Shown: positions 17,765 to 50,317, counted from the first letter of the stretch. The stretch is 64,000 nucleotides of DNA from Marsupella aquatica (GCA_973895155.1 OZ316896.1:23021722-23085721); one strand, 5' to 3'. A program made the numbers and translations. Notes: generated by a model from the sequence alone, not told the origin.

Positions 17765-18402
17765 AGCTCTGAACACGATTTCTGATCGAACGAGAACTAT
17801 TTCCGCAAACAAGAACTATTTCCGCAAACGAGAAGTGTGTTTTCATTTTCCGCTGAATCTCGCGAAATTGGTGGTTTTTTTAATCAAAAACAGGTTTTTG
17901 GGGAAATAATGTAATCTGTATCGGAGTTCGGATTGAATCAAGAAATTCAGGAATGGTCCAAACCACTGAAATTAATGGTCATAAACATTCAATTTATCAA
18001 GGAAAAATTAGATCCAAAAAATGTTCGCCAGAACCTCATATTCACTCTCTCCAAAGATATATGAAACGTCTTATCTAGAAATCCATATCCACTTTTCAAA
18101 CAAAGTCCGATACCTGTATCAGACTCCGGATTTCAACCATGAAAGTTCCGACCGAATCTCAATTTCCCCAGTTTTTGGTTATTTACTGTAACTATTTTAC
18201 ATCACAGTCGATAAGAAATTACCGCACAATTTGTCAAACTTACCTTGCAGTTACCTCCGCAATTGACCATAGTAACCACATACATGCATAGTCAACATGC
18301 CGTTGTCTCAACAACAATGCGCAGTCCGATAAAATTATCGCGGCAACTCCGGACGACAAAAATACTTGCCGACAATACTAAGATCTTTCGGTTCATCGGT
18401 TA

Positions 18403-18640
18403 AATTTCAAAATTGCAACTATCCATATTACGAAAACACTTTTTGCAATACCAACGTCAGATAAATTTATCGCTGCAATTTCAAAATTGCAAACTTTCCA
18501 TATGAAGGAAACACTTTTTGCAATACCAACATCAAATAAATTTATCGCTGCAATTTTAAAATTGCAACTTTCCATATGAAGGAAACACTTTTTGCAACAC
18601 CAACATCAGATAGATTTATCGCTTAAATTTCAAAACTACA
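18403..18640. repeat. Tandem repeat, 3 units of 74-75 bp, each with a GATAAATTTATC-like palindrome
   Basis: AATTT(C/T)AAAATTGCAA starts at 18403, 18477 and 18552, with a partial unit at 18626. Confidence 0.9.
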
Positions 18641-18727
18641 TAATTTCTCCACGATGCACGTGTAAGAATCAAATTGGAAATCCAAGAAATATACCCTTCT
18701 CTGCTATTTTGTGGTTTAGCGAGATGG

Positions 18728-18776
18728 CCAATCAAAAGTGGCCACGTGGGCCAACCCCTCAACAGACACTATAAAA
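18728..18776 (+). promoter_or_regulatory. Putative transposase promoter: CCAAT-N9-CCACG (ERSE-like, overlapping G-box) plus TATAAAA
   Basis: CCAAT 18728-18732, CCACG 18742-18746, TATAAAA 18770-18776, ~145 bp before the ATG at 18921; same layout in element B. Confidence 0.6.
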
Positions 18777-18920
18777 GGACCACCGTCGATAAGTTTTTGG
18801 CGTCATTATCCAGAGTAGAGTTTCAGGAGTTGTGTTCTTGGAGCAACATTTTGTTGGTTGAGCCATTCGTTTTCCCTGATTGAGGGAGGAATGCAAAGCC
18901 CCATAGTGTCTCGGATAGCC

Positions 18921-20210
18921 ATGTCTCAATCAGACACAGATTCACCTTCAAGTTCAGTTGAATCCTCTCCTAATCTACTCTCTCACAGCAGATAGTGCCC
19001 AAATTTTCTGACGTTGATTCAGATTCTGATGCAAGTTCTGGTCTTGAGCCCAGTTCTTACTATGTATCGCCTAGTAAACCTAAGAAGCGTCGTCTCTTGA
19101 GCGTTCCATCGCCAAGGAATGAGAAAATTACAATCCCAGGTTTAGGTCTGAGACGTCGCTTCAGGCCATCCATCCCGGGTTATGGAGAGGGTATCCGGCG
19201 ACCGATACGCGTATCGCACTCAGCATTCAAGTTGCCACATTCAACACACGTTCAACGACGGATCTTTTAGTCTCAGGGTGAGGATCAGGAGGCAGAAATA
19301 CAAAGACCGATATGGCGATCGGTCTTTGCATTGCCTGGACTGGACGTGCGAGCAAGCAAGGGAATTGGATTGCAAAGTCCAGACTCGGCCCTTTCCCAAA
19401 TGGTCCATGGGAATCGTGGTCAACAAGTGCTCAATTTTCCTGCAGCTCGCGGAGTCGTTGGGATTGCACGTATGAATAGTTCACCGTTCAGAGTTCCAGA
19501 TTCTCCAAGTTCTCCAGGGCGGACTGTGATTGGTTCCAGGCTCCAAGTGTCAAGGAGAGGTCTTAGTGGCGTTCGGGTTACTTATGTATAGAGAGCCACG
19601 GAGTCCAATTGTGTTTTCAGATGAGTCGAGTGGATCAGAGGACGAAGATCAGGAAGGAGATAGAGAATCCGATATCATAGCACAAGTTGTGTCTGAATGT
19701 TTAGAAGGAGCTGTAGAAGGGAATAGTTTTAGTCACCTTTTCAGTGCCCCTCTAAATGCGTTGAGGAGATCTGTGGAGGATGGTAGCTCAACAGAGAGTG
19801 ATGCATCTATTCGTGAGGTACCTGAAGGAGAGGAAAATGCTAATGTTCTCATCGGATTTCAGTCTATAAAGAAGTCAAATGAGCCTAGTAAAAAAGATAG
19901 AGATCGACCGAATTACTAGGAAAGACAATTATGTGATAAATGATAAATTGAATAGAAACAAAATGCAAGAAATTTATAAGTATCCATGTTGTGATAATTT
20001 TTGTCTGAGGAATTTGGGTTTGCAGGATGTGACAAAACAACGCACATATTACTATGGGCTATCCTACCAAGAGAAGAACGTACTTCTAAGAGGATGTGTG
20101 AAGGGTGGGCATGCCTGTGCAAGTGGTTACTCAGTTAGCGGTAGATCCTTTTGTCGGAGTGGTTTTAAGAAATTATTTTCCCTAGGAAATAATCGTCTCC
20201 AAAAAATTTG
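18921..20210 (+). pseudogene. Element A transposase, N-terminal part only
   Basis: Colinear with the element B transposase (KKRRLLSVP, PSIPGYGEGIRR, REPRSPIVF, KYPCCDNFCLR, FCRSGFKKLFSLGNNRLQ); has stops and frameshifts and ends before the DDE core. Confidence 0.85.
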
Positions 20211-20221
20211 AACACATAAAA

Positions 20222-22758
20222 AATTGCAGCAAGCACAAAATTCTTGAACACATACGGGATGTCAGCGGAGGGAACAATAACCTCCCCCGCCACATTATAT
20301 TGCACAGGCGGAACAACTTTATTTTTCTGCTTCGACCCAATCTTCAGCTGTAACAAAGGTCGCACAGAATTCCAATCAGAATGAACTCGCTTAACGAATA
20401 CGAAAGCCGATAAAAATCTCGGGATGATTTTCAAATGAAACGAGTTATGCAAAAATGTACTGATGGAATGGCAAGGCCGATAAAAATCTCGCAATGATTT
20501 TTGAATGGAACGAGGAATGCAAAAATCTACTAATGGAATGGCAAGGCCAATAAAAATCTCGGGGAGAGACGGGTGCTTACCGCTTCGCTCAACTTCTCTG
20601 CCCATGTTCTCAGGACGGAAACATCCATCTCATTTGGAAACATTTCTCTGCACGTTGCCCAGTCGGGCTGCCCAGATATCTGCAAGAATAATTCTTCACC
20701 TTAATTGGAAAGTTTTTTCAGCTTTTCCCCTTCCTTGTGCATTTGATCCAAGGTGATCACTTTCCCAATGACCCTATTCAAGAGCCGCTTAACATGCTCC
20801 TTAGTTGACTGTCCTTGAAGACCTCAAAAAGTATTTAAATTGAGGTCACCTGCAAGTTTATTCATTTTAATCTCTTTCAGCGTTAAAGGTTTAACCTTTC
20901 CCTTTGCATTTGTTGTTGCCACAATCTTGTTGGGTTGTCCCAAGATAGTCCCCTTCTCCCACATCTGGAAAACTTTCTCTTGAAGATCCCAAATTTCACC
21001 TGTTTGAAAAGCAATCTGGAACGTTGGGTCATGTTTGGCCATGCTGTCACGAACACCGGGAGTGTATTCCAGCATACATTCCTGACAACAAGCGTGCCAC
21101 AATATCTTTGTTGAAATGGACAGGAATGTATGTTGGAGTCATCCTACATCCATTTCAACAAAGATATTGTGGCACACACGAACTCTGTCGATATGAGTCA
21201 TGTTCTTCCTATACTCCTGGTCATAATTGTGCTGGAAGCCCAACTTTTGGACCTCCGACTTGGTAAGTCCTGCGTATACCCAAGCTTCCAGCTCACCATA
21301 AATCTGCTTCCCATACATTTTATACAACTCGGCCTTTGCTCGAGCACCATGATTTCCTCCAATAATTCTATACTTCCATACTTTGGACTGTAGAATGTCC
21401 CAATCCTCGATTGTGGGACAATCCTCCGGATCCACACACGGCACAAACGATGCGCTGAAGTTAGTGGGGTTTTTCCTTAGAAGAATCTTGATATTCTCCA
21501 CATGCAATTTGTCCACTGGTCTGATCAAAGTTAACTTCTCTCGAGCTTCATCAAAAATTAAATTGTCGACATGCAAGAGGACAGTTGTCCTTTGAAGCCT
21601 TCGCTGCATCAGCAGACTGAGCTCCGCTTTGATGGCGTCAATCTCATACATCGAAAGAGCAGTCACCTCCTCATCATCAATCTAGAAAACGCCATTTGAA
21701 ATTAGATTACGAAAGAAACAATGAGATTTTTATCGGAATCCTCTTTCGTCAATAGAAAATCAAAGTTTGGTAGCACTTACCGATCAAAGCTCGGTTTATA
21801 TATCTGAACGAGGCAAACGCTCGTCAATCACCAGAGGCTCCATATCGATTGGGGCTTCCACTCCTTCCGGGGCTGTGGATAAACTCTAGGTTGTTCTCTT
21901 TCTCTTAACACTGACTCTAGAACCAGATGGCCCCGATCCCTCAGATCCTCTACTCTCGCTTACATTTATGTAGGGCGCTTCCAAAATGCCTATACCTGCA
22001 CCGGCTGCACAACCTCGACGATTGCCGCTGCCCCTTCTCCCACCCTCGGAGGGACCAGCAACATCTTCCCTGGTGTTCCCTCTCCCTCTCCCTTTCCCCC
22101 TGCCACTTCCCTTCCCCGAACCCCTTTTGGGCTCATCCAAAGCCGTACCTCCAGCGCTTTTTGCCGATGAAGCTCCACTCCCGTTAGAACCAGGCCTCTC
22201 AATAACTATTTTCCGGATGGGTTTGAATTCTTCACTTGTGAGCCTCTTGTACTCTGCATTCACCCTTGGTAGCATGATGAGATCACAATCTTGGACAAAC
22301 TGGCACACCCAAGCTGGGCCCATAAGATTCATTACTTTTGCGGACCTAACTTCCGCGACAAGCACGTCTTCAGGGTAACTCTCAAGGGATTTCTCAAGAA
22401 AGTTCTCCATGGTGACAATGACAGAGGTGAATCCCTTGCCTCCACACATTGTCAAGAAACTCAGACCCTCTTTCAACACTTTTGCCTCTCCTTGGCTAAT
22501 CAAGTACTCACAGATCGCCACACCAACGACGGGGCTAAACGAGAGAGTAACCTTTGCGGATTTTTGCATCTAGACACAAAGGATAGGAGACTCACAGTCT
22601 GCCATATCCTTGGACTGTAACCTAGCGTCGCGGAAGTACCACAGTTTCTTGATGAACTTGACCTCTTCACAAATGTCTTCACTTGTCCAAATCGCGTTCG
22701 TGAGGCTTGTCATGAGACTTTCAGCCTCGGCAGATCCACTCTTCCCACTAGGACCCAT
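20222..22758 (-). pseudogene. Element A ParB-like gene, truncated before the methyltransferase domain
   Basis: AESLMTSLTNAIW..EDICEE, LIRPVDKLHVENIK, YRIIGGNHGARAK and DIPYVFKNFVLAAI match 25903-28560. Introns (21682-21780, donor at 20580) sit at positions equivalent to element B. Confidence 0.85.
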
Positions 22759-23100
22759 GATGACAAAGTCTACAAATCTGAATGCAAGGAGCAATAAATT
22801 TATCGCTCTGACAAACCAAAAAACCAAAAACTGGCATGCAAACATCGATACAATGAACTCAGAAAGTGCTCATTCACGTACAAGCATTAGGTCATTCCAC
22901 GAGCGATACCAACTCCGATAAAATTATTGCAAACAAATATGAGCATGATATAAATTGACGGCCGAGATTACATTATCATATGTGTGAACATCTGAAAATG
23001 CGACCAACACCGATAAAATTATTGCAAAAGTGGTCCAAACAAAAAGTGAACCTTCTTTAAATTGACGGCCGAGTGTACAATCACGTGATAATGTGCCTAA

Positions 23101-23823: not shown

Positions 23824-25902
23824 GGCCTGATCAGCGAATAGAAATCAGGAATACATTTTGGAGAACATACTCATTATAATTCTACAAGTTTCATTCAACT
23901 TTACAGTTCCTTGTATAACGGGCTGTGAAGCCAATGCACTTGTCAGCTAATTGTCCGTAGAGGCGCAAAAAACTACACTCTGGACCACACAACCCGAAGT
24001 CAGGCGATCAGGGTTCTGTTGTCTCAGGGAAGGCTTCCAACAATGTGGCCTCCGGCCTCTGTCCTGCCGACAAGCAACAGCTGCTTTCAAAAGAGAAGAA
24101 ACCTTCAGGATCCCCGTCTGCATCAATGGACCCTGAAGATGATGCAAGACAAGGAGCGGAGGTAGAGCCGTTGTCACCACTCTTGCATAGTCGCTCATTT
24201 TCACAACAGGCGCAAGAAATTCAAGCAGATGAGGAGGTTGCACACAACAATGGAGATGAGCATAGTCAAAAATAATTGTCGACATCGACTATCAACTTGC
24301 ATGTTGATTGCTTCACTCCGTCCACCCAGAGTTACATTCAATCTGATGAGGATGATGAAAGTGCTTATTTGCGCCGTAATGATAAAACAAAACAACAAGA
24401 GGTAAGTAAGTACCGTCATGCTGCACTCTTATATTATATATGGTAAATGTATTGCACAGTGACAATACTAAGTCAATCTGTTTACGGTATGTACTTATTC
24501 TGCAGGTAAAGAGGCAAAAAGTGACAGCAATACTGTAGACGAAAACAACCCTCTCTTGTACAAGGTACAAATCTGAACGTGCAATATTTCATTTTGTAGG
24601 TGGATATAATGTGATCAAGTTCCCCTCGTACTACTGTAAGTGATGCTTGAAAAGTTTCTTAGAGGTGCTTTTGAGACTTGATTGATGATTTGCGCTGTGG
24701 TAGGTAAAGTGAGAAAGACAAAGAACAAGATGGAGTCCTTGGAAGCATTGGTAACCTCAATTCACCCTTGACAAGAACACGGCGAGGCAAGGTTAACACA
24801 GTGACGGACCAAACGAGAAGTGTGACCACCCTTCTTGTTTTGCCCAATCGCAAAATCGCGGCTAAGTAAAGAAATCTCCGATACGAAACGCCCATGAGTG
24901 CGAATATCGTTTGTTTTGGACTCGGTTTTGGAGTCTTGAAAGTGAAGAGCGATACGCGGATCGCTCTTCGCATTGCGCAACCAAACAGTAAGAAAAAAAT
25001 CCACTTGAGACAGTAAACTGCATAAACTGCGCGGTTGACTACGAAACTTAATCCATGGTTAATTCTAACTCAACTTTGGTTAACGGAAACTAACCATGGT
25101 TAACGGCCAAAACTATATATATGAGTGCTCGGCCGTTCATTTCTCTTTCGGACAAATACAAACTGCTTGGTGCTCCCTGATCATTGTTTACCAAGCTGCA
25201 AAACTAACCATACAAACCTACATTTGAGTATCAATCGCACGTTTGATACAAGTATCGAAGGTTGCATTTGATCCTTATTTTGAACTTGAAATAGGAAAAT
25301 CGATACCGGTATCGCCTTCTCTATTCCGGTTAGACTTCTTGAGAGGTGTTTTTTTTTTGCTAGGCCATTCGCGAATGCCCTCGACGATACGCGTATCGCA
25401 AATTGGATTGCGGACCCAACTTTTGTGTTAGTGGGAAACTTCTGACACCGATAGCGCCAAAACAATTGAAGATTCACATAGGAAGCTTAGTCTTTTTGCG
25501 AGAAGGTACGGGTACCATACTAGGTTTTGATTTTATTTCCATTATAGCGGCCATTTGCTAACATTGATCGGTGGTTTCTTAAACAGCTTGTAGAGGCACG
25601 AGAAGCATCCGTCACTTTGAAGGTATGGTTACCACACAATCAATGTCGAGCAAACTTATTGGCAAGCTGTATTCATAGGTTGTTTAAGTTCTGGAACTTA
25701 TATTTATGAAACCAAGTTATGTAGCCATATGATTTCCAGCTTCAATATGTTTACATGTTTGTGGTAAATTCTAGGGTTTGGAGAGAGCGAGACGATCTAC
25801 CAGTATCACGGTTGTCATTCCGAAGGCCTACTCCAAAGAGACTGGTATCATAGATATCATTAAGTATATTAATCAATTGCACCTACCCTCTAATCCGTAA
25901 CA

Positions 25903-28900
25903 ATGGCGCCCAATCAGAGGAGTGGTTCTCAAGATGATGAGAGTTTGATGAGTAGCCTCTGCTCTTCAATCTGGCAGAATGAGGAGATTTGTGATGAGCA
26001 GAAATTCCTGAAGAAGAACTGGCATACAGTGCGCGACGCTATCGGAATGTTTCCTGATAAGGAAATTGACAAACCTTTTTTGTGGGTTCGAATCAAGAAG
26101 TCTGAGAAGGTTACCCTTTCATTCGGTCCGGTTGTAGCGTTTGCAGTTTGTGACTACATGAAGAGAAGAGGGAAAGATAAAGAAGCCAAGCAGGCTTTAA
26201 ATTTCTTGACTATGATGGGGACGAAGCCGTTCACTTCTATTATTCTTGATGTGGATTATTTTGACTTGAAGGCGATGGAAGCACACCCAGAGGATGCAGT
26301 TTTCAAGGAGTTGACAGATATTTTCTCTTGCGATTTAAAATTGACCCTTGAATGGTTTGAGAAATATGTTGCAGATTGTGACGAAGTACTGCTGCCACAA
26401 GTTTAGGCAGAATACAAGAAGATTTTTGGGCAGGATTTCAAAAAGACACTAAAATTGAAAGTCAAGAGAAAGACTGCAGAGGTAAGTGGGAGCTTGACAG
26501 CACAGGATCAGGTTGGCAAAGATCATGAGGGAGGATCAACCGGTGGAACAAAAGTAGGAAGTAAAAGTAGAACGGGTGGTCAGCGAAAAGAGACTCGCCA
26601 AGGACCGAGTGAGAAAGCGGTGAGTGGAGGTGCATGAGGGAGCCACCCCAGAAGGAAGCAATCCGGTTCTCGTTTGAGTAAAGATGATGACACCATTGGG
26701 GAAGTGGAAACCAAACATTTGAGTGACGTCCAAAAAGGGAGAGACAGCGCCGCCGCATCCGAGGGAGCTTTAGAAGTTGAAATGTTTCGACAAGACATTG
26801 TAAGTAATGTTTAATCGTTGAATAGTCCAAAGAAAGTGGTTTGATGATATTTTGGATTTCACTACCAATTGCAACATCCCCGTGAGCTTGTGTTACCTCT
26901 TGTGAACAAGCGTTATGTGTGACTTTTCAGACAATCAGGTCACTTGTGTTTTGCTATGAAATTTCTGATACCGGTATCGGTTGAAACATCCCCATTATTG
27001 TTTATAAACCTTTTGTTCCTCTCATGCTTGGAAACCTCATCCTAAGATGTTTTCTATGTAGGATGGAGACGATCTTACCGCACTTGAAAAGTACGAGACT
27101 GATGCCCTGCGCGCGGATCTTTTTGAGTTGATGACGAGTCGTAGAGTACTACAAACTACTGTTATTTTAAGTGTGAAAAATCTCATTCTTGATGAAGGAT
27201 CTGATGAATCTACCCTCATCCGCCCGGTGGATCGTTTACATTTGGAGAATATCAAATCTCTTTTGATCCAAAATCCAACAAATTTTAGCGCACCGTTTGT
27301 TCTTCATGTGGACCCAAGTGATTGCCCAACAGTCAAGGATTGGGACCAGTCTAAGTATATGAACTGGAAGTATAGAGTGATTGGCGGGAATCATGGTGCA
27401 CGGGCGAAGAATGAGTTGTTTGAACAATATGGGAAAAAGATCTTTGGAGAAGTTGAAGCATGGGTTTACGCTGGCCTCTCAAAACCTGAGTTTTGAAAAT
27501 TGGGTTGGAAGCATAACATAGACCAGGAGTACAGGAAGACAATGACAAATACTGATAAACTCAGGGCCTGTCATAATTTGTATTTGGAGTTCATGCAAAC
27601 GAAGAAAAAAGATCTTCGATTTGCTTGTTGTGAGGAGTGTGGCCTTGTGTACAATCCGAAGGATAGAGAGAGTGTTTCAAAATATGATCCAATGTTTCAA
27701 ATTGCATTTCGGCACGGAGAAATATGGGATCTTACAGATACAATTTTGACAATGTGGTCAAAGTTTGAGGTTCTTGGACAGGTGAAGGCAAAGTCTCCTG
27801 TAAAGCCTGCTCCTCCCAAGGGCAAAGGGAAATCAAGAGCAAGAGCAAAACCTGTATCCCGAAAGTTGCACAAACTAGCAGGGGATATCAACTTCTTTCC
27901 ATTCAGAGCACTTCAAGGTTTTGCAAATGAGGAGCAACAAAAGCGGTTATTGAGGAGGGTAATATCCAAAACTATAAGTCTTGATCAGATGCACCGTGAA
28001 GGAGAGCTCTTGAAAAAGCTCTTCAAGATAAGAAATTTGTTTCTCCAAATATCCGGTCAGCCAGATTGGGCTACATGTTGATTCTTATTTCTTGAAGAAA
28101 CTCAGGTTTCAGTTCTGACGACGTGGACGGAGAAGTTGAGCGACCAGGTAAAGGAGTTTTTCATTACTTATATTGTTTTATATAGCTTGAAAGAGAGGAG
28201 CAATACCTTATCTGCTTCTCCATTGAATTATTTGTTATTTTCTTTCATTGTGGGTTCTAGAGTGGAACCCAATACGGATGTTATTTTTTTTAGATTGAAA
28301 AAGGAGATACTGGTATCTACTTCTCCATTGTGGGGTCCTGATTGAATCCCACTACCGGTATCATTTTTTGGAGTTTGAAAGAGAGTAGTGATACTGGTAT
28401 CTGCTTCTCCATTGACTTTTGTGAAGCCTTGCAGCTCAAAGCATACTCCAAAAGGAAAGTGATACCTGTGGAGTAGACCAAGGTTCAGCCGGCAAAGCAG
28501 ATCGAACTCCCGGCTAAAGACATTCCACATTCTTTCCAGAATTTTGTACTTGGAGCGATTGAGAAATACAACCGGCAACAGAACATCGCATCTGTTGAGA
28601 TTGTTTCAACAGATTACACCTGGAAGAACGCTGACGGGGATTCTTTCCCTTATTCATTGCATCTTGGAGATGTTCATCGTTTGGAGGGGTTCTTGAAACC
28701 CCAAAATTATACTTTCGCTGTTGCTGATGTACCATATGGTTTTAATGCCCCCGGGTCTGAGTTTGATGAAGTTCCTTTTTCAGAACAGGATGTCGTCGAG
28801 ATGGTCACCTCTTTTTCCAAGGTGACAACAGCAAAGATTTGGAGATTCGTTGTGATGCATTCTCTTCAACAAGCTAACATGGTGATGCATGCACTTGAAA

Positions 28901-29543
28901 AAGTTTGCAACTGTGGAGTGGAAGCTGGAATATTGCAAAAGACAAATATTCATCAACATCCATCTGGCCCAAGATTAGCTTGGGCCTTTGAGAATTGGAC
29001 CATTGGGTACTACTCGGAGGAAGGAATTTGAAAAAAAGATATGTACAATTTTGAGCCAATTCAACGGATTTGAGGGTTAACATCATCAGTATCCCTTGTG
29101 TCACAACAAAAGCCCTAACACCACTGGGGTTTATTGTTAACCCTTATCAGAAGCCAGTTGGAGTGTCTGATTGGTTTGTGAATTATTTTAGCAACAAGGG
29201 AGATTGGGTGGCAGACTTGTGCTGCGGGACAGGGGCAACTTTGGTCGCGGCCCTTTTGAATTCTCGCAACGGATGCACGGTGGATAAGAGCTCTACTCAA
29301 ATTGAGTATGTCAAAAGTTGAATCATGACTTTGGACTCTGCTTGGAGTCTATTTGACAAAGCCTCAATTGTCGGAGATGGAGAAAGCTCTAAGGAGGTTC
29401 AACCTCCCATTGGCGGTGAGCTAGGTTTGATTGGAACGGATGCTTATGTAAACGAGTCGCCAAGGGAAGATGAAACTGAAAATGAAGAGCAGCTTCCGCA
29501 GACGCCCAACGATGAGGATCTTAATGAAATGTTGTTAGATTAG
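25903..29543 (+). pseudogene. Spliced gene: unknown N-terminal domain + ParB/Srx-like domain + beta-class N6-adenine/N4-cytosine DNA methyltransferase, disrupted
   Basis: Exons 25903-26799, 27062-28147, 28435-29543. ParB-like IRPVDRLHLENIK...YRVIGGNHGARA (27371-27400). MTase LHLGD...ADVPYG (DVPY 28726-28737), NPYQKP (29139-29156), WVADLCCGTG (29205-29234). Several TAG/TGA stops and a frameshift near 29055. Confidence 0.88.
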
Positions 29544-30640
29544 CTAAATAAAACATTATGTAATATGCCACTCTTAGTTGTCATTATTAGAGCTACATGG
29601 GATTTGTACTTAGTAAATAGTAAATCTGATACCAGTATCTGGAATATCATTTGTAGCTTTATATTAGTATGTACACTTTCTAGATGATAAATACTACTTG
29701 TGATACCAGTATTGGAAATCATATTCCAAACGGAGAAGGAATCAAATAGAACCCAAACTGCACTTTGGATGTCTATTCTAAACTGATGTGGGACTGTTTT
29801 CTGTCGAGTGAAATAGTGCGACACTTTCTATGCAACTCAAACTTCAGTAGTTCATCAAGAAAATTCAGGGTGATTACTAAATGTGAACTTGTGTAAATTG
29901 TCTAGACAACTTCTGTGCAATGGATCATTATATCCAAAGCACAGAGGTTGTCAAGACAGTCTACATGAGTTATGTTTACATTTTTACAAGAGGGCAGTTG
30001 GTTTGTTAGTCAACAACCATCAAACTGATATGTGCAAGGCACAAAACAATAAAAAATACAATGGAAACTATAAAATTGACGATGTTTGTACCTCAGATGA
30101 TTTTAAACGTCTGAGGTAACTTCATCATCGATGCTATTCAAAGTATCATTATGCGATGCAATACTATGAATATGACCCCATTTTGGGTTTGCTCTAAACA
30201 GCTCCGAAAGCATACCTTCTCGAGATTGCGAATGCAATATCCAGTCCATTAATATTCGTGAACTCGATCTTGCATTCAATCTCATGAAGGCAAGCTTTCG
30301 GAACAAAGTAACCACATTTAGTGGCTTGAAGGTGGCTTGTTTGTCATTTGGTAAGTTATTGTTTCTATACACGGTTTATATGGCAATCGGTACACAACAA
30401 AGCGAGGAGCGATACTGGTATCGTATCTGGTTTTTGTAGACAATCATCTTTTTACATGTGTGAGAGATACTAATTTTGCTCGACGGAAATTTATTTTCAC
30501 TATAAGGTATTGGTACACATTCGACACTAAAATACATTACCATTCAACAATATGTCCAAAAAAAAGCTGCTTCTTTATAATAAAATACTATTTACGATAC
30601 CAATATCAAAAACCACATTTGTTACAACTACAAAATTTCT

Positions 30641-33600
30641 TCAAGCTGTACAATCATCTAGCATGGCTGCCTGAATAATTCTTCGTGTTTTTGCTGGCAA
30701 GGTGTTGTCTGCATTCAAAGAAAAATTGTAGGCATAAATTGCAGTTTCAGAAAGGCAGATCTCTCCATGCAGAGCTTTGTTTGATGATGCTTCCTTCTCA
30801 GGATAATATTTTCCTTCAATTGTTGACAACTCCTCAGAATCCATCGTGTACCATGTGATACCAATATTGTCAGGCACTTCATCAACCTTGGTCAGTATTT
30901 TGGTAACCTTTGCCAGCCAAAAAGGCCTCCCATTTTGATCTGCATGGGCTGCAACACAAATCATTGAATATTTGTTATTTACTTCAAGATCTTTAAAATC
31001 TCCTACCTCGGAAATCCTCTTCCGAGCTCCAGAGTACATGGCCTTCTCTGGACCTGCAATTTTCTCAATGAGATCAGGTTCAATTGTAGGCGCCCTCCCA
31101 TCCATCACTAGGGTCTCTCGATGCTCGTTTGATTTTGGCCAGACCCAATCAAACATCCACTGTGCTGGCTTTAGGTGATTTTGGATGACATCTTCCTGTT
31201 TGTCAAAGAAATTTAGCCACCACAACTTATCCTTGTCGTCAAAATAATTGAATCCCTCCTCAATCGCTTTCCGATATTTCTCCAATGTTTCTCTTTCTAC
31301 TTCACCAGTAGCATCTGCTCCATCCCCTCCATTGGTGCTTTTCAACGCCATTTGAGGTACGTGCAACCCAGAATGTGGTTGTTGGGATGTAATTCACAAA
31401 CTCCACGGGATCACCCCAACTTGGGGTTGTTGAAATGTGTTTGGCATGAAACAAAACTTTTGGAATTCCATTTTCCCCAATCACACGTTTTATTCGGAAT
31501 TGCTTTTGAAAACTGATCTGATGAAGTGGTTGCAAAACATGCCCGGTTGCCCCAGTCCTGTTGGGGGTTGATCTTTATCGCTCACACGAAAATCCACTGT
31601 TTCTTCTACAAATATTATCTCAGCTTTGGGATTGTACGAACCCTGTATAATGTCAACAAGAGTATCCACTCAGAAAGCTTTGCGTTTGTTCAGTTTTGAG
31701 GAAAATTTGCTGAACATTTGGTCTATCTGATCATGTGTGTGGCCAACCAGCAGAAATCCAACCTTGATCTTCTGGAAAACCCCCAACTCTACAAGCATAT
31801 TTAAGTAAGCAAACAAGAATTTATTCTTGTTCTCCCGAGCAGTGTTATCCAACTGTAAATATAGCACCGGAGGTAGCACTCCCTCCCAAGTATTCAAAAT
31901 ATTCTGAATAACATGGATTGTAAGGTTAGAGTCATTGTGAATATTAGGGTAATTGAGATATACCTTGGCCTTCAACTGACCATTGAATATCAAACTGCCC
32001 ACCACATGAACAGAAATAAAATATTTCTCATCCATGTTTTTTGGACATCTGGTGAAGTGCGGTAACTCCGTCTTCTTTTGGTCCATCCCATCAATACATA
32101 TCCCCAAGTACTTTTCGGGGTGCTTGTAACATTTATTCCGGTGCTTTGCTAATTTCTCCCGCTTGACTCCTTGCGCTATACGATGCTTTTTCAACAACAT
32201 AGCATACTTACCTGAGCAATATCAAATTGGTAACAAAGTTATTATAAAAAAATTATTGCAACACTAGACTGCTGGTCTATTGGCATTTTGAGGTGTGTGG
32301 CAAAAACCATCTTCCAATGCCAAGACCTATAAATTTATAGGTTTTGGTATTCTAAGTTCAATAACACATCCAATTCCAATTCATATGGATAAAACAAAAA
32401 CTTACTTTTCTTTGATTCGAGCGTAGCTTTGTCACGGAGAGCTTTGAATTCTGTGCATGGACCGCAAGTCGAAAAATGACTTCTTTTTGGAATACGAACT
32501 CAAGGAAAATGTTGCTTCCATGTCCGACAGAACCAAGAATATGTAACCCCTTGTTCTTGGCGCAACAGAGTTTCAGTTCGGAAGGCATCAAAGACTTCAG
32601 CTTTCGTCCAATTGTCAGGCAAATGAAAAATTTCCTTATTGGGAAGTCTTTCAACGTTACTCCTAAAAAAATCATTTAACCACTCTATTAAAGTAAGATG
32701 AGTGGAGGATTTTTTTCTACAAAATACATTGTTCTCGATACAAGAGAACATATTTTGGGTTATCCTTTGAAGGCGATTATTTCCAATTGAAAATAATTTC
32801 TTAAAACCTTCTCGACAAAAAGAGTTTCCAGACACACTATACTCGCATGACCCACTCTGGTTATTCCTAACGCATCCTCTTAGAAGTATATTCTTCTCTC
32901 CACGGGTCAGGCCAAAATAATAGGTACGCTCTTTCGTTACTTCAAGTAAACCGAAAGTCCTCAAACACATATTGTCACAACATGGATACTTGAACACTTC
33001 TTTCATTTTTCTCCTCTTTAAATTCTAACTTGTAACAGTGTCTTTCTTGGCTATCCTATCCCTATGTTTCTTACTAGGGACTTTCAGTTTCACCCTATCC
33101 TGAAATTCCCTTGTTGAATCATCACTTCCACGGTCTTCACAAACCTCTTCGATGACGTCCTCATTGTCAGTGTTTGGCTCACTGAAAAGGTGGCTATAGC
33201 TACTCTGTGGCTCATTGCCTCCATCATCAGCTTCTAAACATTCTGACACAACTTGTGCAATTACTTCGGACTCTCTATCGTGTACAGAGACATCTTCCAG
33301 ACTTTCTTCATCACTGGAATCATCAGAAGATTCAAAACATACAATTGGAGTTCTGGGTTCTCTAAACTTGACTCGAACTATTGCATTACGAGAAATACCT
33401 ACCCTAGGTAACCCATACCTTCTAACTAGAAATCTTGAAATAGTACCCGTCTGAACTGGCGTTGTCTGTGGACTATTCTCTTTAGGACCATTATCCTCAT
33501 TTGGACAAGATTCAAAAAGTCTCTGCATACACTTTCCTCAAAGCATTCAAGATTGAGCGGAGATAGGACTTTGGAGTCCCATGAAAGCCACCCTATCAGT

Positions 33601-34078
33601 GGATGTCCGCCCCAACACTGGCAATGCTCAAGGCAATACGTGTATCACCTTTGGTATTCGCGACTCTGTTGGCTCTCGAAAAATCCTCCTTTGCACCTGA
33701 GAGCTAGTGCTCATTGAATTTCTCGGATCCAATCCTGACGCCGATACCCGTATCGTTCTTCGGATTCCTTCTCCATATCCAGGAATGGATGGTTTATAAC
33801 AGCGTCGAGCTCCCAAACCTAGTATTGAAAGTTTCTCTATTCCTGGTCGAGGAACACTCAGTAGACGTCGTTTATTTGGCTTACTAAGTAGGGGAGACAT
33901 AATAAGACCCTATCTCTGGCGTAGAACCACCGTCTGAGTCTGAACCGGAATCCAAGAGTTCGGGTATGACACGGTGGGACGGGGAAAGCTTCTTCAAGAT
34001 ATGAGAAGGTAGAAATCTTGTTCGAACATTAGGAGATGACTCCATAGAACTCTCTTGGGAATCAGATGTATGAGACAT
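30641..34078 (-). pseudogene. Sola-like (DUF7869-type) DDE transposase with a C-terminal SH3/Tudor-like segment, disrupted
   Basis: CCDNMC, RLPNKEIFHLP, FSTCGPC, intron 32405-32212, then CIDGMDQKK (DGMDQ 32078-32092), LQLDNTARENKN (~31820-31858) and VGHTHDQIDQMFS (~31706-31745). In-frame stops and frameshifts present. Confidence 0.88.
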
Positions 34079-34244
34079 GATGAATCAAAAACTCTATGGC
34101 AGTTCACATTCGTCTCTTGAACCTAGTGTTGCAAAGCTTGTCTCATGAACTTAGGGAAGAGAGATAGGGAGCAGAGAGATCTAGACAGCGAAAATGACTC
34201 CCGACCTCTAATGGAATGAAGTCCGATAACTTGAGCGTCCGCAC

Positions 34245-34291
34245 TTTTATAGTCACGGCGGCAGAAGATTTACGTGGCAATTTTTGATTGG
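34245..34291 (-). promoter_or_regulatory. Putative transposase promoter of element B: CCAAT-N9-CCACG plus TATAAAA
   Basis: On the minus strand: CCAAT 34291-34287, 9-nt spacer, CCACG 34277-34273, TATAAAA 34251-34245; ATG at 34078. Confidence 0.6.
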
Positions 34292-35939
34292 CTCCCGCTA
34301 AACGACAAAATAGTCCAGAGTCGGGCCTCCATAATTGGTCCCTGTATCTGAGTTTGGAATTGATGTTTGAATTTGAGCAACATTTAAATTAAGGTGGTCA
34401 AAAAGGTGAATGGCAATACCAGTATCGCTGTTTGCATTGGAGTCATTTAAATGTGATCCTGGAGGACGACAAATACCGGTATTGTTATGTCGTTTCTATC
34501 ATAAAATGGGATACCGGTATGGGAATAGTTTAGTTTTCTTGATCTGTTTTCCTTGTAACCAAAAGTTCTATTTTCAAAATCTAACGAAAATGGAAATATT
34601 TATGGGTTCTATTGTCGCAATGAAAATGTTTGAAGTTAGTGAGGATATTGAAATTCACAATTTGGGATGAAGCCAACATTCCTCACGAAGTTGGGAACGA
34701 TACGAATTAGTTGGTTTTGCAAAAATCATTGATTTTGCAAGAAATGTGTCGCGCACATTGTGAAAATTGGCGAAAATCGATCGAAATTGAAAACACCCTT
34801 CTCCATTAGGCGTCACACTTCTCGTTTGGTCCGTCACAGTGTTGGTTCCAAATCCAGGCAAAGAAAATGTACCTTCATTTAGGGGAATTTCAACAAAAGT
34901 ACAGGAGGATGCACGACAACGGTTGTTGACTGGCAAGAACATGGTATGATTACACATTCCGTCGGTTCAAGATGTTCTTCGTTTAAAGTAATAGATTTGT
35001 TTAAAGTACGATTCATTTGTGTATAATGAGGTGGAGGTAGAACATAATGGTCTTAAGGTTTCATGATCTGCCCATTTTATATATATGTTCAGGAAAACAA
35101 GGTAGAAGTTCCGTGCGCGCAAGGAACTAGGAGCAGATTAAGTGGCAAATCACACGTTGCTGAAGACTCAAACATAGTAAGTACATATATAGTTCAGCCG
35201 CACTACGCAAACATATATAAAAATCCTGTTCAACATCATATGCTATGTAAGTTGTTTTCAGATGTGAGGGGCCGTTGTTGTGCTTTTAAACATCCACCCT
35301 ATCTTTCTGAAACTTTTGCAGGACTTTGACACACTCACTAAAGACGCCAAATTAGTGGTCTGCATGAGAGCCATGGGATTGATGAAGACATGCGAAGTGG
35401 ATGCCAAGCTGCGCATGTTTGTTGCAGATACAAACAAGCGATCAAAGACTTCCCCCAAACCATTCACCAAACATGCTCAAAAGACTGCGTCTGAGTTATT
35501 AGACATGGTGGCCAGGTGGGCTCTAGAGCAGAACAGAGTAATCATTAGAGATCTACCGGTTCTCAATGCGAAAGGCAAGCAAAGGATCTTCCCCAAGAAT
35601 GCTGTATAGAATGTTGCTGAAGACTGAGGTAGTCAGATACCTAGAACATTGTCTGGTGAAGGGGCTTGGGGTTTATATATGTCTAGTTTTGTGACTCGTG
35701 CACGCGCTCCTAAATAATCAAACATTGTCACATCTGTATGTCTGTCAATTTGAATGAAGTAACCCCAAGTATCCATGAATTTTTCCACGGATCCACCTCC
35801 CATGTACGCCTCCAATAACACTACATCCCCGGAATACCTTCAAAATACCGGCACACAAGATCCACGGATGGCACACAGTGGACCCCTGGATGCCTCCAAT
35901 CTGCGCACATCCGACAAATAACATCAGAATACCTCAGAA

Positions 35940-37495: not shown

Positions 37496-38792
37496 AACAA
37501 AGTGATGAACCAAACGAGAAGTATGACCACCAAATGAGAAGTGTGTTTTTGATTTCCCAAAAAATGGCAAAAAATGACAAAAATTAATATCAAAAATGCT
37601 ATTTTCAGGATGAATCCAGAATTTCATCCAACATTGGATTTCAAGTTGAGATATTGTCGACCCAAAAACAAACAATTGTCACAATCCAGAATTTCGAGAC
37701 ACTTCACTTGTAAAAAGGGCAAAAACCCAAAACCTGGAAAACAGTGCTTTTCACGTCATCCCTTGACTTTGTTTTTGACCATAGTTGGATAAGGCGTATC
37801 CAAAGCTGATAAGGTGTATCCCCACGGCCTCTTATTAAACCAAATATATTTCATGGAGCAGATGGGGTTGATTCAAGGGTAGAATCCCAAAAACTCATCA
37901 TTCATCCAAAAATGTGCTACAAAATAAAGTTCATATTCTTGAAAAGTATCTTTACAAAGAGCCCAAGATCATGAGCAGACCAAAACATGAACGGAAGCAC
38001 AGGAATGAAGCTAACTCTAAGCTTCACGATACATATCCACGAGCCTTGCTTGCTGATCTTTCTCAAGATTGTGCCAGTCTTCTTGAAATCAACTTAGTTC
38101 AGACCTTGAAAATAAACCCAAAGAAATCGATTGGTGAAAGATTTGGGGTTTCCATCCTAAAAAACCAACATGAACATTCTGAAGGGGTTCTCCTTCGGGA
38201 ATGTTTGTCAGCATTTCATTTACTTCCTCAAACTGGCTTCTTTCTAGTCTAAACATACCCCAGACTCGTGTACAAATTACGAGCTGGTTCCATTTCTTTG
38301 AGAATGATGCATGGACCAAGCCACACCATTGTTTTTAATTGCTTCAATCTTTCCTCAGCTGAGATCTTGGAGGAATCAAATTCATCCTCTATGCAACAAA
38401 CTTTCAAAATGGGCCACATGAAAGTTTCAACGATCTCATCAGAAAGTCCATCCAAAAGCAATCTGGATTCCCTTCCCAAATTTCATCGCAGTTGGTTAAA
38501 AGTTACCATTGAAAAGAATCATATGGGAATATTCTTAAAAGGTAAATCGATCTCAAAACTTTTACTACGTTTAATTTTTGTTTTTTTAGAATTCCGCGGT
38601 GGGATCCGAAATGGGATACGCTGTATCACTGGTTCGTATTCAAGTCAATTTTCCCATTTTTTAAAATCTAAAAACTAGTTTCTTGAGGGAATACCAATTC
38701 CGCATCCAGGACCTTTTTGCCTTAGACATTTTTTCCGTCGCGGGAAAAATGAGAAGTGTGGTCACACTTCACGTTTGGTCTGTCACTGTGTT
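37496..38792. mobile_element. Element C: 1,297-bp non-autonomous member of the same TIR family
   Basis: Left end AACAAAGTGATGAACCAAACGAGAAGTATGACCAC; right end GTGGTCACACTTCACGTTTGGTCTGTCACTGTGTT; CACC on both flanks (37492-37495, 38793-38796). Confidence 0.92.
38089..38479 (-). pseudogene. F-box-like gene remnant inside element C
   Basis: LLDGLSDEIVETFMWPIL followed, after a frameshift, by SFSKKWNQLVICTRVW, matching the two halves of an F-box-like pattern. Confidence 0.45.
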
Positions 38793-41125: not shown

Positions 41126-41431
41126 AGATTTAGAGAGGCTGACAGATACCGATTGACAGTACTTTACTTATGTGGTCACTTTACAGTACTTTACTTATGT
41201 GGTCACTGCAATTGAATTGGACGATGTGGGCTAAGTTAGCTAAGAACTTTTGGAAGCTACCGAAAAATTCAGGACCTTCAAATGTCCACCTCCGTCAGAT
41301 GATCGCCAATTTTTCGCGGTGCATATGCGGCAATCCCTTGGCCTCGAACATTGTCTAGTCAGAATTGCAACAATAATGACACAATTTCACTATTGAAATC
41401 ATCCTTTGACGAACTCGTGTGCAGAAATATG
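41126..41431 (+). repeat. Older diverged copy of 7242-7525, directly before the duplication junction
   Basis: Aligns with 7242-7525 apart from a 27-bp internal duplication, 4-bp and 1-bp deletions and a few substitutions. Confidence 0.9.
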
Positions 41432-44400
41432 GTCCTAATAGAGGGAAGAGATCAGCAATTGAATGCACAATGATGGGAAAGATGTTGCCGCCCCACAACT
41501 CACCACCGTCGCCAAAACCGTTACTTAGCTAAGGAGAATTTAAAGCCAAAATCCAAGGGGAAGATTGTGGCAAGTTTTCGACAGTCTAGAGTTGATAGTA
41601 GTAAAGTTGGCACTGCCAAACTCAAACTGGGGGGAACGTTGCCAAACCAAAGACACAAACAATGCAGAAGGCTAAGCGGGACTCCACAGCATAGTTTATT
41701 GATTTTAATAGGGAAATGCCACATTTACAAAAGATTACAAAAGGGACATATACATATTGCAATGTGAATTGGACTAGACAAAAACTGCTTTGGCCGAGGT
41801 GCACCCCGGGGGTGCACCAGACACAAGCAATAACGAAGGATTGTTACCTCACAACAAGTTTAGTGAGGTAACCAAACAAGTGTTTGGGAGAGTACAACAG
41901 TGAAATTGAATGATTGAGTGGATACTCCTCAAAGGGACATCTACTACATTGATTTCAGATGATCAGATTTAGAGAGGCTGACAGATATCGATTGACAGTA
42001 CTTTACTTCTGTGGTCACTGCAATTGAATTGGACGATGTGGGCTAAGTTAGCTAAGAACTTTTCATTGGAAGCTACCGAAAAATTCAGGACATTCAAATG
42101 TCCACCTCCGTCAGATGATCGCCAATTTTTCGCGGTGCATATGCGGCAATCCCTTGGCCTCGAAACATTGTCTAGTCAGAATTGCAACAATAATGACACA
42201 ATTTCACTATTGAAATCATCCTTTGACGAACTCGTGTGCAGAAATATGCTTGCAATGGAATTCATGAACCGAATCAAAGGCCAATGACACGTTGGCCCGC
42301 ACGTTGGTGAGAAGACGATGTCAAGGAGTGAGAGCCTCCCTACCCCGATCCTGTTGAAGGACCCGGACCCATTAGTTAACGGCAGTGACGGGTATCCGAG
42401 GGTAGCCACCTGAACACCAAGTCTCAGAGACCAATGAGGCCATCTATGGAACATGAAGAGCCAGGTGAGTCAACGAGACAAACATACTCTATATAATGAT
42501 CAGGTCGACACTTTCAAGTTTCAACATTCTAAAGGGATGGTGGTCCTTCTAGATTGGTACGGTCGGAATGATCGATTGACCGGCACTAGCTTACGTACTT
42601 AAACAACATTTCATGCCAGGAGTCGGATACTTGGCGAATCGGAGGTAGTATGAAAACACTAGGGTACATAGTCAGAGGCAGTAGATGGATTGCAGCTGAG
42701 AAAGTCAGTCTCTGGCCGGCCTGCATTGAGAGGCAGTAGATGGATTCGAGCTGAGAAAGGAACTCATGCATACAAGGCCAGGTCTCGACCAAACTTACAC
42801 TATATCACCTATGCCTCCCAAAAAGTCTGTCACCCTTTTACAAAAGGAGAAAAAAACCTGAGCCAATCTTCGCCCCTAGTCAAAAATTGATTTTTTTGGC
42901 ACCTTAAAATACACCCATACATCGCTCTTATCAAATTTCTGCCGTAAGTTCAAGTTGCCCAACCTATCCGAAATGAGAATTTTTCACACTCTTGGTAAGA
43001 GATAGCTTAGTATAGGGTTGAGTGATCCCTTATGTACGCCCGTATGTATGAAATGCAGGATGAAAATAATGTCAATTTTTATTTTGAACATGAGGATAAA
43101 AATAACATAGTCTAACAACACATTGGCAAGACTGAAAAATAAATGTTGACACCTTATCTAATTAAGGCAGATTGAAACGAAAATACATAACAAAAATTTC
43201 AATAAAACAAATTTAAACCTGAGTACCCCAAACTAGGTAACATCAGAATCATCTTGTCTAGCTTATTTGAATGACTTGCTGTATATCTTTATTAATGTCA
43301 TTCTGGTCCATCCTCTATGCGGGACTCTATGGTGGGAACCCTTCTTGCTACCTTGTCTTATTTGAACTACTGCTCAAAGCCTATATCTCAATATTAAATA
43401 TTCTAGTAACCATTTCTAAAGAGATCCTAAAACAGACATCTTTGAGTAGGCTCAAATTTGTTCAGTAGGGTTTTTGATCTTTTCTAGTGGTTGAATATTC
43501 TCTGGGTTTCTCGCTCTTCCTTGGTTTTCCCCTTTGCCTATGGTAGCTCTTTTTCTTTTTTTCTCGTTTTGTGATACTATACTATACTATACTATACTAT
43601 ACTATACTATACTATACTATACTATACTATACTATACTATACTAGAGACTCAAATGTGTGAAATGTGTGAAACGTGTCCATCTTCGTCGGTGAAAGCTGT
43701 AGGAAGGAAATATGTAGCTCCCTGGCTATTGTTAGAAGACATCCAGAGTCCCAATAAGTTCGTGAAGGACCATGGGTTATCTCGAAAATTGAAGGACCGT
43801 CTCTTCTCTGTGTTGACTGCACGCCTTGTCAAACGGACCTGGCCCCGGCCCGAATCCACTGGATTCCATGCCAGGACCTTGTAGAAACCATCCCACTATT
43901 AAAGGCTCAGACCTCTGCTGAGAACCATATCGGTCTGCCTTGATCACCTACACAATCGTGATAATGCAGCTTTCATTCTTGAGCTGCTCACTACACTGGA
44001 TGCATGCAGACGACTAGCTGGTGTACCTTGGTTTTGATATTTCAGCGTGTTTAGTTCTTGAGTAATGTGGCTTCTGATCGAACGATTTGTGTGATCGATC
44101 AATCACAACAAAAATCGTCAGGCTGCGTGGTTTCTCTTTCTAGTCTGCCTTTCAGGACACAACAACGAGCCGTGAATAGTTAGTTCGTTCGTGATTGCGA
44201 AGCGAATCTGAAGGGAAGAGGCTGAGGTCAGGCTTCCTCCATTGAGCAACAGTCACATATTGGTGCTTTGAGGAATTCCTTCCCCAAGAAAGCATCCCTT
44301 TAAGCTCAACGAGTTTTTCACTGCAGATTCATCCGGCTCGACGTAGCAGCTGTGAGTTACTTAGGAGCCTATCGAGAGGAGCACAACCTCCAGTAAACCT

Positions 44401-44436
44401 TCGCCCAGGGTGGTTCGCCCAGGGTGGAGCGGGGCA

Positions 44437-46761
44437 ATGGAGGTCCCCTTGCTGTGGATATTGGTGTGGTGTACGATCCCCTTAGCTTTCATGTTCCCGG
44501 CAGTTGTGCACGGCGACCCAATTAAGGTAACCTTCGATCACTGCCGGAATTCAACCTCCTTGCTTGATCCACTGCGCGGCAATTCCTCAGAATCCATCCC
44601 GTGCTGTCCCGTCATGCCAACTAGGCCGATCGTCAACGGGCCGCCTCCTCTATTGACGGAACACATCAGAGTTAGACAAGCTGCGCAATGCACGGATGCA
44701 GCTTACGCTGCAAAGCTCAACAAGGCGTATGCGTTGATGCGGGCGCTGCCAGAAGATGACCCACGTTCCTTCTCTCAGCAATGGCAGCTTCACTGCTCTT
44801 ACTGCGGGGGTGCATTCTTGACCGTTAACAGCAGTGGATCTCCTCAGGGAATCGACATCCACTGGAGCTGGCTATTCTATCCATGGCACAGGTACGTCAA
44901 ATCATTACCTGCACCACTACACCAATGTCATCGATTCCAGACCAGTCTAGTCCTTGAAACATTCAGGAGCTGTTACAAAAAGTAATGTTTCAATTGAAGG
45001 ATAAATTAGACAGGTTCACAGATGTTTGCGGGTACGTAGTCGCTACAATGATTTTTCCTTACAGGGTTAATTACGATTCTCAAGGAAGTTTGAATTCGAT
45101 CTCGATCACTGAGAAGCTGATAAGTGTTGCAACTAATGAATATATGCAGGTGGTACTTGTACTTCCACGAGAGGATCCTGCAGTCGCTCCTGGGAGACCC
45201 CGACTTCAGCCTCACTTACTGGAACTGGGATGCTCCCTACAGTGTAGGAGATGGGTCTTCCAAGAATGGAGCTTGCCTGAAACAGGGACATGATTTCCCA
45301 GCCTTCTACGCCGACAATTCCTCCGCCGCATACGATGTCAATCGATCTGCGAATGCGAAGGGATATGGCCGTCTGCACTTCCCCGATGTCAGTTACACCC
45401 CTGTCACACCTGCAATAACACAGGTTCTCTTCAACGCATCTGGAGAAGACATCATTGAAAGTAATCTGAACATATTGTACCAAGCATTGGTGAGCGGCGG
45501 AACATCGAAAGAAACCTTCATGGGTCGGCCATATCGCGCAGGAAACGCGGCAGGTGTGTATATAAACCGATCGATTTGACTGAGAAAACTCTCCACATAA
45601 GCTACTTTAAGCCAGCCATAAAGAAAACAAGACTTTCTACCATCCCTAGGTAGCGTTAGTTACAAACAATTTGACTCTTTCCTAAAGAGCTTACTCGAAT
45701 CATATCTTGAGCGCTTGCAATCCCAACGATGTCGGCTAACTCTTGTTGGTTTTGAATTCACAGGCACTGGAGGCCCAAATGGAGGTGCTGGAACGCTAGA
45801 AAATGGCGCTCACTCTGGTGTTCATTCCTGGGTCGGAACAGACCCGCCAGGCAACGACATGGGCCAGCTTTCACGCTCAAGCCGTGACCCTGCCTTCTTC
45901 GCTCATCATATCAACCTCGATCGTATGTGGCAGGTACGTCAGTTAATTAGCTCGAGATAATTGATTATCGAATACAGATCGATGTCATTAATTTCTATGG
46001 TCATGGACTGATTAAATTTTGCAGAATTATGTTGATTGTTCAGCTCGGGAAAGCTGATATATTTCCGTGGTTGGCTGAAACAGGTATGGAAAGATATCGG
46101 GCCAGTACTAGGTCAGACTCATGAGGACTACTCGGACCCTGACTTTCTGAATGCTGAGTTTCTGTTCTACGATGAAAACAAGGATCTGAGAAGAGTGAAG
46201 GTAGGAGACTCGTTAGACTCGAAAAAGTTGGGATATGTTTATCAAGGCGCTAATGATGCACCATGGGTCTTCTTCAACACTACCAAGTGTAATAAGCTTA
46301 GCTACAACGAACTTATTGCCCAAGCCGAAAGCTTGCCAGTGCCAAGCAAAGACTCGAGAGGATACTACCACCTGAACGGCGGTAAGACATTCACTATGGT
46401 GGTGGAAAGACCAGAGAATCCACACGGCCTTGAAGAGTTCCTCACCATTGATGGAATCAAACTCGACAGAACTCGGAACACAGGGTTTGACGTGTTTGTG
46501 GATTGGGTGAACCCGACCGAGCATTCAGTGCCAACCAAATGCGCTGAATTCTCTGGGAGATTCACCAACTTGGTTCAGAGCCGATCTGCTACTGAAGGGA
46601 AACCGGATTTGGACTGGAAGCAAAGTATTTCCAGAACACTAGATGATATTGAAGCTCCAGCAGGCCCTTCAAAGGTCGTCATCACTCTAGTGCCTATGTA
46701 TCGAAAGGAAGACCCAGATGAGACCTTGATCAAATTCAAATTCATCACGATTGACATTTGA
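44437..46761 (+). CDS. PPO: Polyphenol oxidase, duplicate copy
   Basis: Translations match 9694-12018 (offset 34743). Confidence 0.93.

Positions 46762-50254: not shown

Positions 50255-50317
<63 letters not shown>

Follow-up and report, generated by a model that had tools for sequence, protein, structure and literature searches.

The closest described system is Sola1-1_Ec32 of Ectocarpus, whose accessory protein was proposed to bind and modify its own element; the account of it also cites similar proteins of green and red algae (PMC12477816). The consensus sequences of parS and of the Noc-binding sites (NBS) are 16-bp palindromes read by two DNA-binding domains, and paralogues were found to switch specificity (PMC7383237). 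In a stretch of 64,000 nucleotides of Marsupella aquatica (GCA_973895155.1 OZ316896.1:23021722-23085721; hereafter the window), a Sola-like transposon, element B, was found to contain the palindrome GATAC-NN-GTATC in many copies together with a gene for a predicted ParB-methyltransferase (ParB-MTase). It is proposed, at a probability of about 0.57, that the palindromes are family-specific sites at which the ParB-fold protein encoded by the element docks, which would bring the methylase to the element's own copies and help their expression. The accessory-gene design and the self-marking idea were already published for Sola1-1_Ec32; the family-specific candidate sites appear to be new in the literature searched.

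Like Sola1-1_Ec32, element B is Sola-type, with a 4-bp target-site duplication (TSD) and AAC- termini (AACCG there, AACAC in B), and its accessory gene lies on the strand opposite to the transposase and combines ParB-like and N4/N6 methyltransferase domains in about 1,030 predicted amino acids, as against about 1,100 (PMC12477816). Unlike it, element B resides in a land plant and measures 10 kb instead of 21.5 kb, and the two genes are likened by design. No target site was named for Sola1-1_Ec32 in the parts of the account available, and the string 'palindrom' gave 0 matches in the main text of PMC12477816.

With ParB/parS and Noc/NBS, element B shares the predicted N-terminal and DNA-binding folds, a multi-copy palindrome of 14-16 bp (a likeness of geometry only) and a presumed switch of site specificity among relatives, as in the ParB and Noc paralogues (PMC7383237). 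Unlike these systems, the element has no ParA gene, GGNH(S/G) replaces the GxxR motif, and the protein is eukaryotic, intron-containing and fused to a methyltransferase. The absence of parA refers to the open reading frame (ORF) list and the six-frame translations, which show two genes, positions 29560-30600 being covered by the 100-aa ORF list alone.

The VANDAL transposons with VANC and Spm with TnpA likewise combine an element-encoded accessory protein with short family-specific motifs, which have accumulated in their non-coding DNA (introns, intergenic stretches and termini) and often form tandem arrays (PMC5735166; 10.64898/2026.08.24.746577). Element B is a parallel of VANDAL/VANC in site distribution, as the initial annotation had suggested, and not a member, the transposase being of the DUF7869 type and not a Mutator-like element and the ParB-MTase being unrelated to VANC. 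The quoted VANC and TnpA motifs are 8-10-mers and not palindromes of the B type (PMC5735166; 10.64898/2026.08.24.746577), and demethylation was shown for VANC (PMC5735166); the B protein includes a predicted DNA-modifying enzyme.

The features of element B were as follows.

24791..24794, left TSD GGTT (right copy at 34844-34847)
24795..34843, element B, 10,049 bp, Sola-like cut-and-paste DNA transposon, a decayed copy
24795..24826 (+), left terminal inverted repeat (TIR), starting with AACAC (the right TIR finishes at 34843)
24951..25849, palindromes upstream of the ParB-MTase gene, at 24951, 25245, 25302, 25386 and 25838
25903..26799 (+), predicted ParB-MTase exon 1, with two in-frame stops; a homologous exon is found in the related loci L001 and L003
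26967..26978, palindrome in ParB-MTase intron 1
27062..28147 (+), ParB-MTase exon 2, ParB/Noc-like N-terminal domain and helical DNA-binding domain by predicted fold
28306..28401, palindromes in ParB-MTase intron 2, at 28306 and 28390
28435..29545 (+), ParB-MTase exon 3 with a predicted start, putative beta-class amino-methyltransferase, broken in this copy
29628..30607, palindromes between the convergent gene ends, at 29628, 29702, 30411 and 30596
30641..34090 (-), DUF7869 transposase gene (Pfam E 5.2e-43), broken, with a predicted intron at about 32212-32405
33635..33754, palindromes within the transposase 5' coding region, at 33635 and 33743
34415..34521, palindromes upstream of the transposase gene, at 34415 and 34510, and one with two mismatches at 34472

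All site counts were taken over 1-41429, the duplicate copy 41430-64000 being left out. Element B was found to contain 9 exact GATAC-NN-GTATC palindromes against 0.03 expected; with one mismatch allowed the count rises to 16, against 0.38 expected. The expectations were derived from 150 third-order Markov simulations trained on B. The 24.8 kb of window DNA outside the elements and the duplicate contained 0 palindromes, in agreement with the initial annotation, which had not seen the motif in the flanking host genes. The shorter form GATAN4TATC (up to one mismatch) was present 19 times in the 10,049 bp of B (5.4 expected) and 9 times in 24,754 bp outside. All 14 coordinates listed by the initial annotation hold the motif or a variant, 10 of them exactly, 3 with one mismatch and that at 34472 with two, and the sites at 24951, 25838 and 33635 had been overlooked. 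In an unbiased scan of all 4-mer dyads in B the palindrome ranked first (P 6e-21), a level reached by 0 of 20 simulations, and a chance origin was ruled out by these simulations and the scan.

The spacer was found to be strict, as 9 of the 10 exact GATAC...GTATC pairs have 2 bp between the arms when spacers of 0-11 are allowed. The motif widens to about (G)CGATAC-NN-GTATCG(C), with an outer C in 18 of the 32 half-sites and an outer T in 8. The spacers are CG, TG or CA at 11 of 16 sites against a background of 17% (P 6e-6), so that the earlier remark on CpG deamination in the cores was borne out, and spacers and outer bases together are consistent with CpG decay of CGATAC-CG-GTATCG. The placement in non-coding DNA, claimed from the start, stood for 14 of 16 sites where non-coding sequence makes up 37% of the element (P 4e-5), and failed at 33743, a listed site that falls within the transposase gene, in its conserved 5' ORF. 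Both coding sites, 33635 and 33743, align with palindromes 19308 and 19203 in the homologous ORF of the sister element A, and it is suggestive that at 33635 the palindrome is kept while the amino acids differ from those of A. The sequences flanking the B sites are for the most part unrelated to one another: the median identity is 16 of 40 and the highest 23, and a lenient threshold sorts them into nine groups. A single repeat expansion as the source of the sites was therefore ruled out.

Two further elements of the window were compared with B.

17772..23100, element A, sister family, internally deleted, in the orientation opposite to B, the right limit being a working boundary
37496..38792, element C, 1,297 bp, a non-autonomous miniature inverted-repeat transposable element (MITE) with B-like TIRs and TSD CACC

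The ParB exon of A is 58% identical to that of B, and a second terminus of A was searched for and not found. Its palindrome is CGATAA-NN-TTATCG, with 10 of 11 sites non-coding and some in 74-bp and 70-bp tandem arrays; the leading dyad ATAA-N2-TTAT (P 1e-8) was reached by 0 of 40 simulations, and two exact B-type sites were present inside A (18109 and 19204). The TIR of C is 88% identical to that of B over 51 bp, and beyond the TIRs the interior of C was not convincingly similar to A, B or any of the L loci. Element C is high-copy in run X4.

Five related loci (L001-L005) were obtained from one metagenome scan, with exon limits set by hand from tblastn. The loci L001-L003 are 52-56% identical to B and contain the word GCGA(G/T)AC-NN-GT(C/A)TCGC; L004, 31% identical to B, contains CATGA-NN-TCATG, and L005 contains CATGC-TA-GCATG. 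Non-coding sites make up 19 of 22 in L001, 8 of 8 in L002 and 3 of 3 in L003, and the leading dyads of L001-L004 each exceed all 40 simulations. Exact GATAC-type words were found in B (9), A (2) and L001 (1), exact GAGAC-type words in L001 (7) and L002 (5) with 0 in A and B, and exact CATGA-type words (5) in L004 only. The words of these elements have one central geometry in common. Though the words differ, A, B, L001 and L002 contain sites in the intron or introns flanking the ParB exon, and L003, which is cut, contains them in intron 1. L002 includes the end of a convergent transposase gene. A second dyad, ATTC-N7-GAAT, was observed in L002:18-1470, alternating with the main palindrome in 45-bp intron arrays.

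The proposed reader of these words was modelled from exon 2. A model built from the duplicate copy 61801-62817 (predicted local distance difference test score 85.6) resembles ParB, Noc and KorB in both its N-terminal and its DNA-binding part, with moderate Z values: against 6sdk a Foldseek E of 3.5e-7 was obtained, against 7bnk a VIA Z of 11.4 (132 aligned, root-mean-square deviation 9.2), and residues 158-319 against the parS-bound Spo0J chain 4umk gave Z 6.1 (100 aligned, deviation 4.1). Exon 2 is thus predicted to encode an N-terminal domain of the ParB/Noc type and, after it, a helical DNA-binding domain. Sequence searches with the ParB exon found no match in PDB, PHROGs or NCBIfam, just a sub-threshold zinc finger in Pfam, and no match among longer proteins by word index. 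In an Atlas search the nearest clusters were fungal DUF3723 proteins (score 0.96, recognition 2306), which may be ParB-fold relatives. DUF3723 proteins are cargo of Starship elements.

Conserved residues of the ParB-like part are R54, G108-G109, H111 and N152 (GGxH, HN). Helix order in the model would place the recognition helix near residues 200-215, and the stretch of about 196-208, predicted to contain it, is the least conserved among the five stretches tabulated. In a homodimer prediction one control scored equally high. The parS-like self-recognition suggested at the outset drew support from the ParB/Noc fold, the parS/NBS-like geometry and the family variants, whereas CTP (cytidine triphosphate)-dependent loading was weakened. 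It is doubtful that the protein spreads by a canonical CTP clamp, as the canonical CTP-binding GxxR arginine is absent: of the 93 homologues aligned, 69 have S, G or T at position 112, where R does not rank with the five most frequent residues. The ParB-fold proteins assayed in another study required this arginine to bind nucleotides (10.1101/2025.10.10.680097).

The methyltransferase part was recognised in exon 3 of B by Pfam N6_N4_Mtase (E 5.8e-8), with the motif order D(V/I)PY, then YQKP, then DLCCGTG, the catalytic motif standing ahead of the S-adenosylmethionine (SAM)-binding motif; B itself contains DVPY. In intact relatives the best match is CcrM (profile E 3e-20, fold E 1.4e-14), and 28 sequences without exception keep the D, P and G of the catalytic and SAM motifs. 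The domain is accordingly predicted to be a CcrM-like beta-class amino-methyltransferase, and N6-methyladenine (6mA) is probably its product, as judged by the D-type motif and the best matches. It shares the common fold class and motif order with CcrM, M.RsrI and the eukaryotic enzymes N4CMT and MpDN4MT1. Membership in the MpDN4MT1/N4CMT group was ruled out by the catalytic motif, D(V/I)PY differing from the SPPY/TSPPY of the N4-methylcytosine (4mC) enzymes N4CMT of rotifers (PMC8885841) and MpDN4MT1 of Marchantia (10.1101/2021.02.12.428880); the B protein is moreover transposon-borne and ParB-fused, unlike the product of a domesticated host gene. In L001 and L002 the methyltransferase exon is intact, and strong purifying selection was found on both exons compared (nonsynonymous divergence of L001 vs L002 0.15 and 0.17, synonymous sites saturated).

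In total 135 homologues were found at E <=0.001, and the 20 looked up include homologues of Chara, Riccia, Adiantum, Ginkgo, abalones and a sea cucumber. The consecutive locus tags R1sor_010795 and R1sor_010796 of Riccia sorocarpa belong to a DUF7869 gene and a ParB-methylase gene. A Chara gene model (P0013) contains two ParB-MTase units in tandem. One homologue (P0059), conserved in four abalone species, lacks a methyltransferase match and shows a weak Tudor-like match, a possible case of domestication.

In the proposed mechanism, two ParB-type DNA-binding domains would quite likely recognise one 6-7-bp half-site each, in the way in which parS is read by ParB. The tethered methyltransferase would then, with rather good but lesser probability, methylate nearby element DNA at promoters, introns and gene ends, likely to 6mA. 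By analogy with VANC and TnpA, the mark or the bound protein may keep the element expressed against host cytosine-methylation silencing, a tentative suggestion. We infer all three steps, binding, methylation and anti-silencing, site recognition being the firmest and anti-silencing the weakest. In a wider reading, which is put forward as a speculation, a eukaryotic transposon lineage present in streptophyte algae, land plants and marine invertebrates could have reused ParB/parS addressing, each family placing its own 14-16-bp address across its non-coding DNA, with the ParB-methyltransferase loading there and painting the family's copies with 6mA as a private anti-silencing mark, and address and reader co-diversifying.

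Several observations weigh against self-docking and self-marking. The N6_N4_Mtase cut-off was passed by 7 of the 28 long homologues scanned (of 135), and position 112, where the GxxR arginine would stand, is occupied by S (46), G (13), T (10), C (5) and L (5) among the 93. The palindrome arms are not spared among copies (3 of 21 variant places in 30 arm bases of a 196-bp stretch, a small test on three sites), and the CpG decay in and around the sites indicates that this B copy was not protected from 5-methylcytosine. Dyad and motif scans of C found no 2-bp-spaced site; three GATA(A/C)-N3-GTATC variants were present instead (37788, 37808 and 38615), 165-312 bp from its ends. The two adjacent ones are probably one duplication, and the 3-bp-spaced half-sites may point to another family in which the spacing has shifted. 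Taken by itself, L005 does not reach significance, as its best dyad is a different word that 1 of 40 simulations reached, and the non-coding bias of L003-L005 is not significant (P 0.11-0.19). With about three clades and an assembly prefix common to 4 of the 5 loci, the co-divergence is descriptive and no co-evolution test. The motif moreover co-diverges with the whole element, so that the transposase co-varies too, and searches for related loci among viral and prokaryotic sequences gave none, and hence no transposase-only control element.

This last point leads to the transposase, or another product of the transposase gene, as the reader of the sites, for end synapsis or for self-activation like that of Spm TnpA and the AtMu1 transposase. 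Transposases can be sequence-specific activators whose motifs co-diversify with families (10.64898/2026.08.24.746577), 7 of the 16 sites in B are no more than 1.1 kb away from an end, and the three 3-bp-spaced variants of the MITE lie near its ends. The explanation is nevertheless an unlikely one, and the subterminal transposase sites that the initial annotation had offered as a second possibility are less favoured: for six B sites the nearest end is 3.5-4.9 kb away, the introns of the accessory gene repeatedly contain sites, the TIRs bear another word, GAGAAGTG, and C, which shares the TIR of B and has its own TSD, is without any 2-bp-spaced site.

No more probable is a KorB-like operator network in which the ParB-fold protein represses or organises its own element, methylation being secondary or serving the protein's own regulation and not anti-silencing. 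The clustering of sites upstream of both genes (five at one; two and a degenerate one at the other) fits such a network, as do the transcriptional regulation by the ParB homologues KorB and VirB (10.1101/2025.10.10.680097) and the homologues without a methyltransferase match, such as abalone P0059, whereas the intact methyltransferase exon of L001 and L002, its purifying selection and its invariant catalytic residues speak against it.

It is improbable that the palindrome itself is both recognised and methylated by the methyltransferase, in the manner of an interrupted restriction-modification site. All seven elements with 2-bp-spaced sites have A as the third base of the 6-bp half-site and the enzyme bears a DPPY-like motif, whereas the domain can be aligned over its full length with CcrM-type enzymes, which recognise short sites, and a separate ParB-type DNA-binding part is present. 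A host transcription-factor site or a neutral outcome of local repeat expansion is very improbable, as the sites of A, L001 and L002 within short-period arrays are outweighed by the 0 sites in 24.8 kb of other window DNA, gene flanks included, by words that differ with the element family and by the mostly unrelated flanks in B.

With docking by the element's own protein as the preferred reading, candidate targets are now concrete for the algal-type ParB-methyltransferase accessory genes, whose Ectocarpus account names none, and the protein-site pairs of B, A and L001-L005 make self-binding testable by a cross-binding matrix. If confirmed, it would represent transposon-encoded, sequence-addressed DNA modification in plants, a localised source of 6mA or 4mC, a mechanistically distinct counterpart of VANC and TnpA and possibly a set of orthogonal epigenome-editing modules. 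Were the wider reading true, the address and reader pairs would amount to a naturally occurring set of programmable DNA markers that are orthogonal to one another. Literature searches found no account of palindromic targets of such elements, which the cited red-alga and founding Sola papers could already describe, and the element family was not described in the available parts of PMC4738411, PMC4455052 and PMC5751038.

The three-exon ParB-MTase gene of B is convergent with the transposase gene, and no Pfam match was found in exon 1. The insertion was confirmed by an empty site, as contigs of runs X4 and X5 connect 24790 to 34844 with 4 letters shared, and hundreds of variant contigs map onto the element, which is multi-copy. 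The copy in the window is dead, the listed stops being mostly TGA or TAG, with a frameshift in the methyltransferase exon; one stop of B reads as an arginine codon in the duplicate copy. In the transposase, D47, D125 and D167 are invariant across 29 aligned sequences and are taken by us to be the catalytic DDD triad, D44 being nearly invariant. With TIRs and 4-bp TSDs (GGTT in B, CACC in C), element B is probably Sola1-like, the domain match being to DUF7869; a literature search found no paper naming DUF7869.

The DNA hosting the insertion of B (23101-24794 and 34844-37100) is also multi-copy and contains ORFs at 23101-23844 (-), 23961-24275 (+) and 35268-35609 (+) with no Pfam match. It is possibly another transposon or a remainder of element A. 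The remaining features of the window were the following.

Host genes (plant DNA): an elongase, an NAD-binding reductase, a polyphenol oxidase and a FUSC/ALMT-like gene
41430..64000 (+), second copy, repeating element A and the left part of element B

Positions 6707-29261 recur in tandem as 41430-64000 (+), over 22.6 kb at 99.83% identity with 14 substitutions, either as a recent duplication or as an assembly haplotype artefact, and the palindromes at 52848-63129 fall in this duplicate and are not independent. The duplicated segment includes the polyphenol oxidase gene, the ALMT/FUSC-like gene and transposons. A tandem repeat with a 147-bp unit was present at 35954-37023 (7.2 copies, 87% matches). 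The Rfam scan of 1-41500 gave no match. A dispersed repeat with AG microsatellites at its end was found at 15395-15575, 37324-37434 and 5181-5342, which we liken to a tRNA-derived short interspersed nuclear element. An inverted pair of about 1 kb (5181-6146 and 14489-15547; 81% identity), containing inner 91-bp repeats, was found to bracket the polyphenol oxidase and ALMT-like genes.

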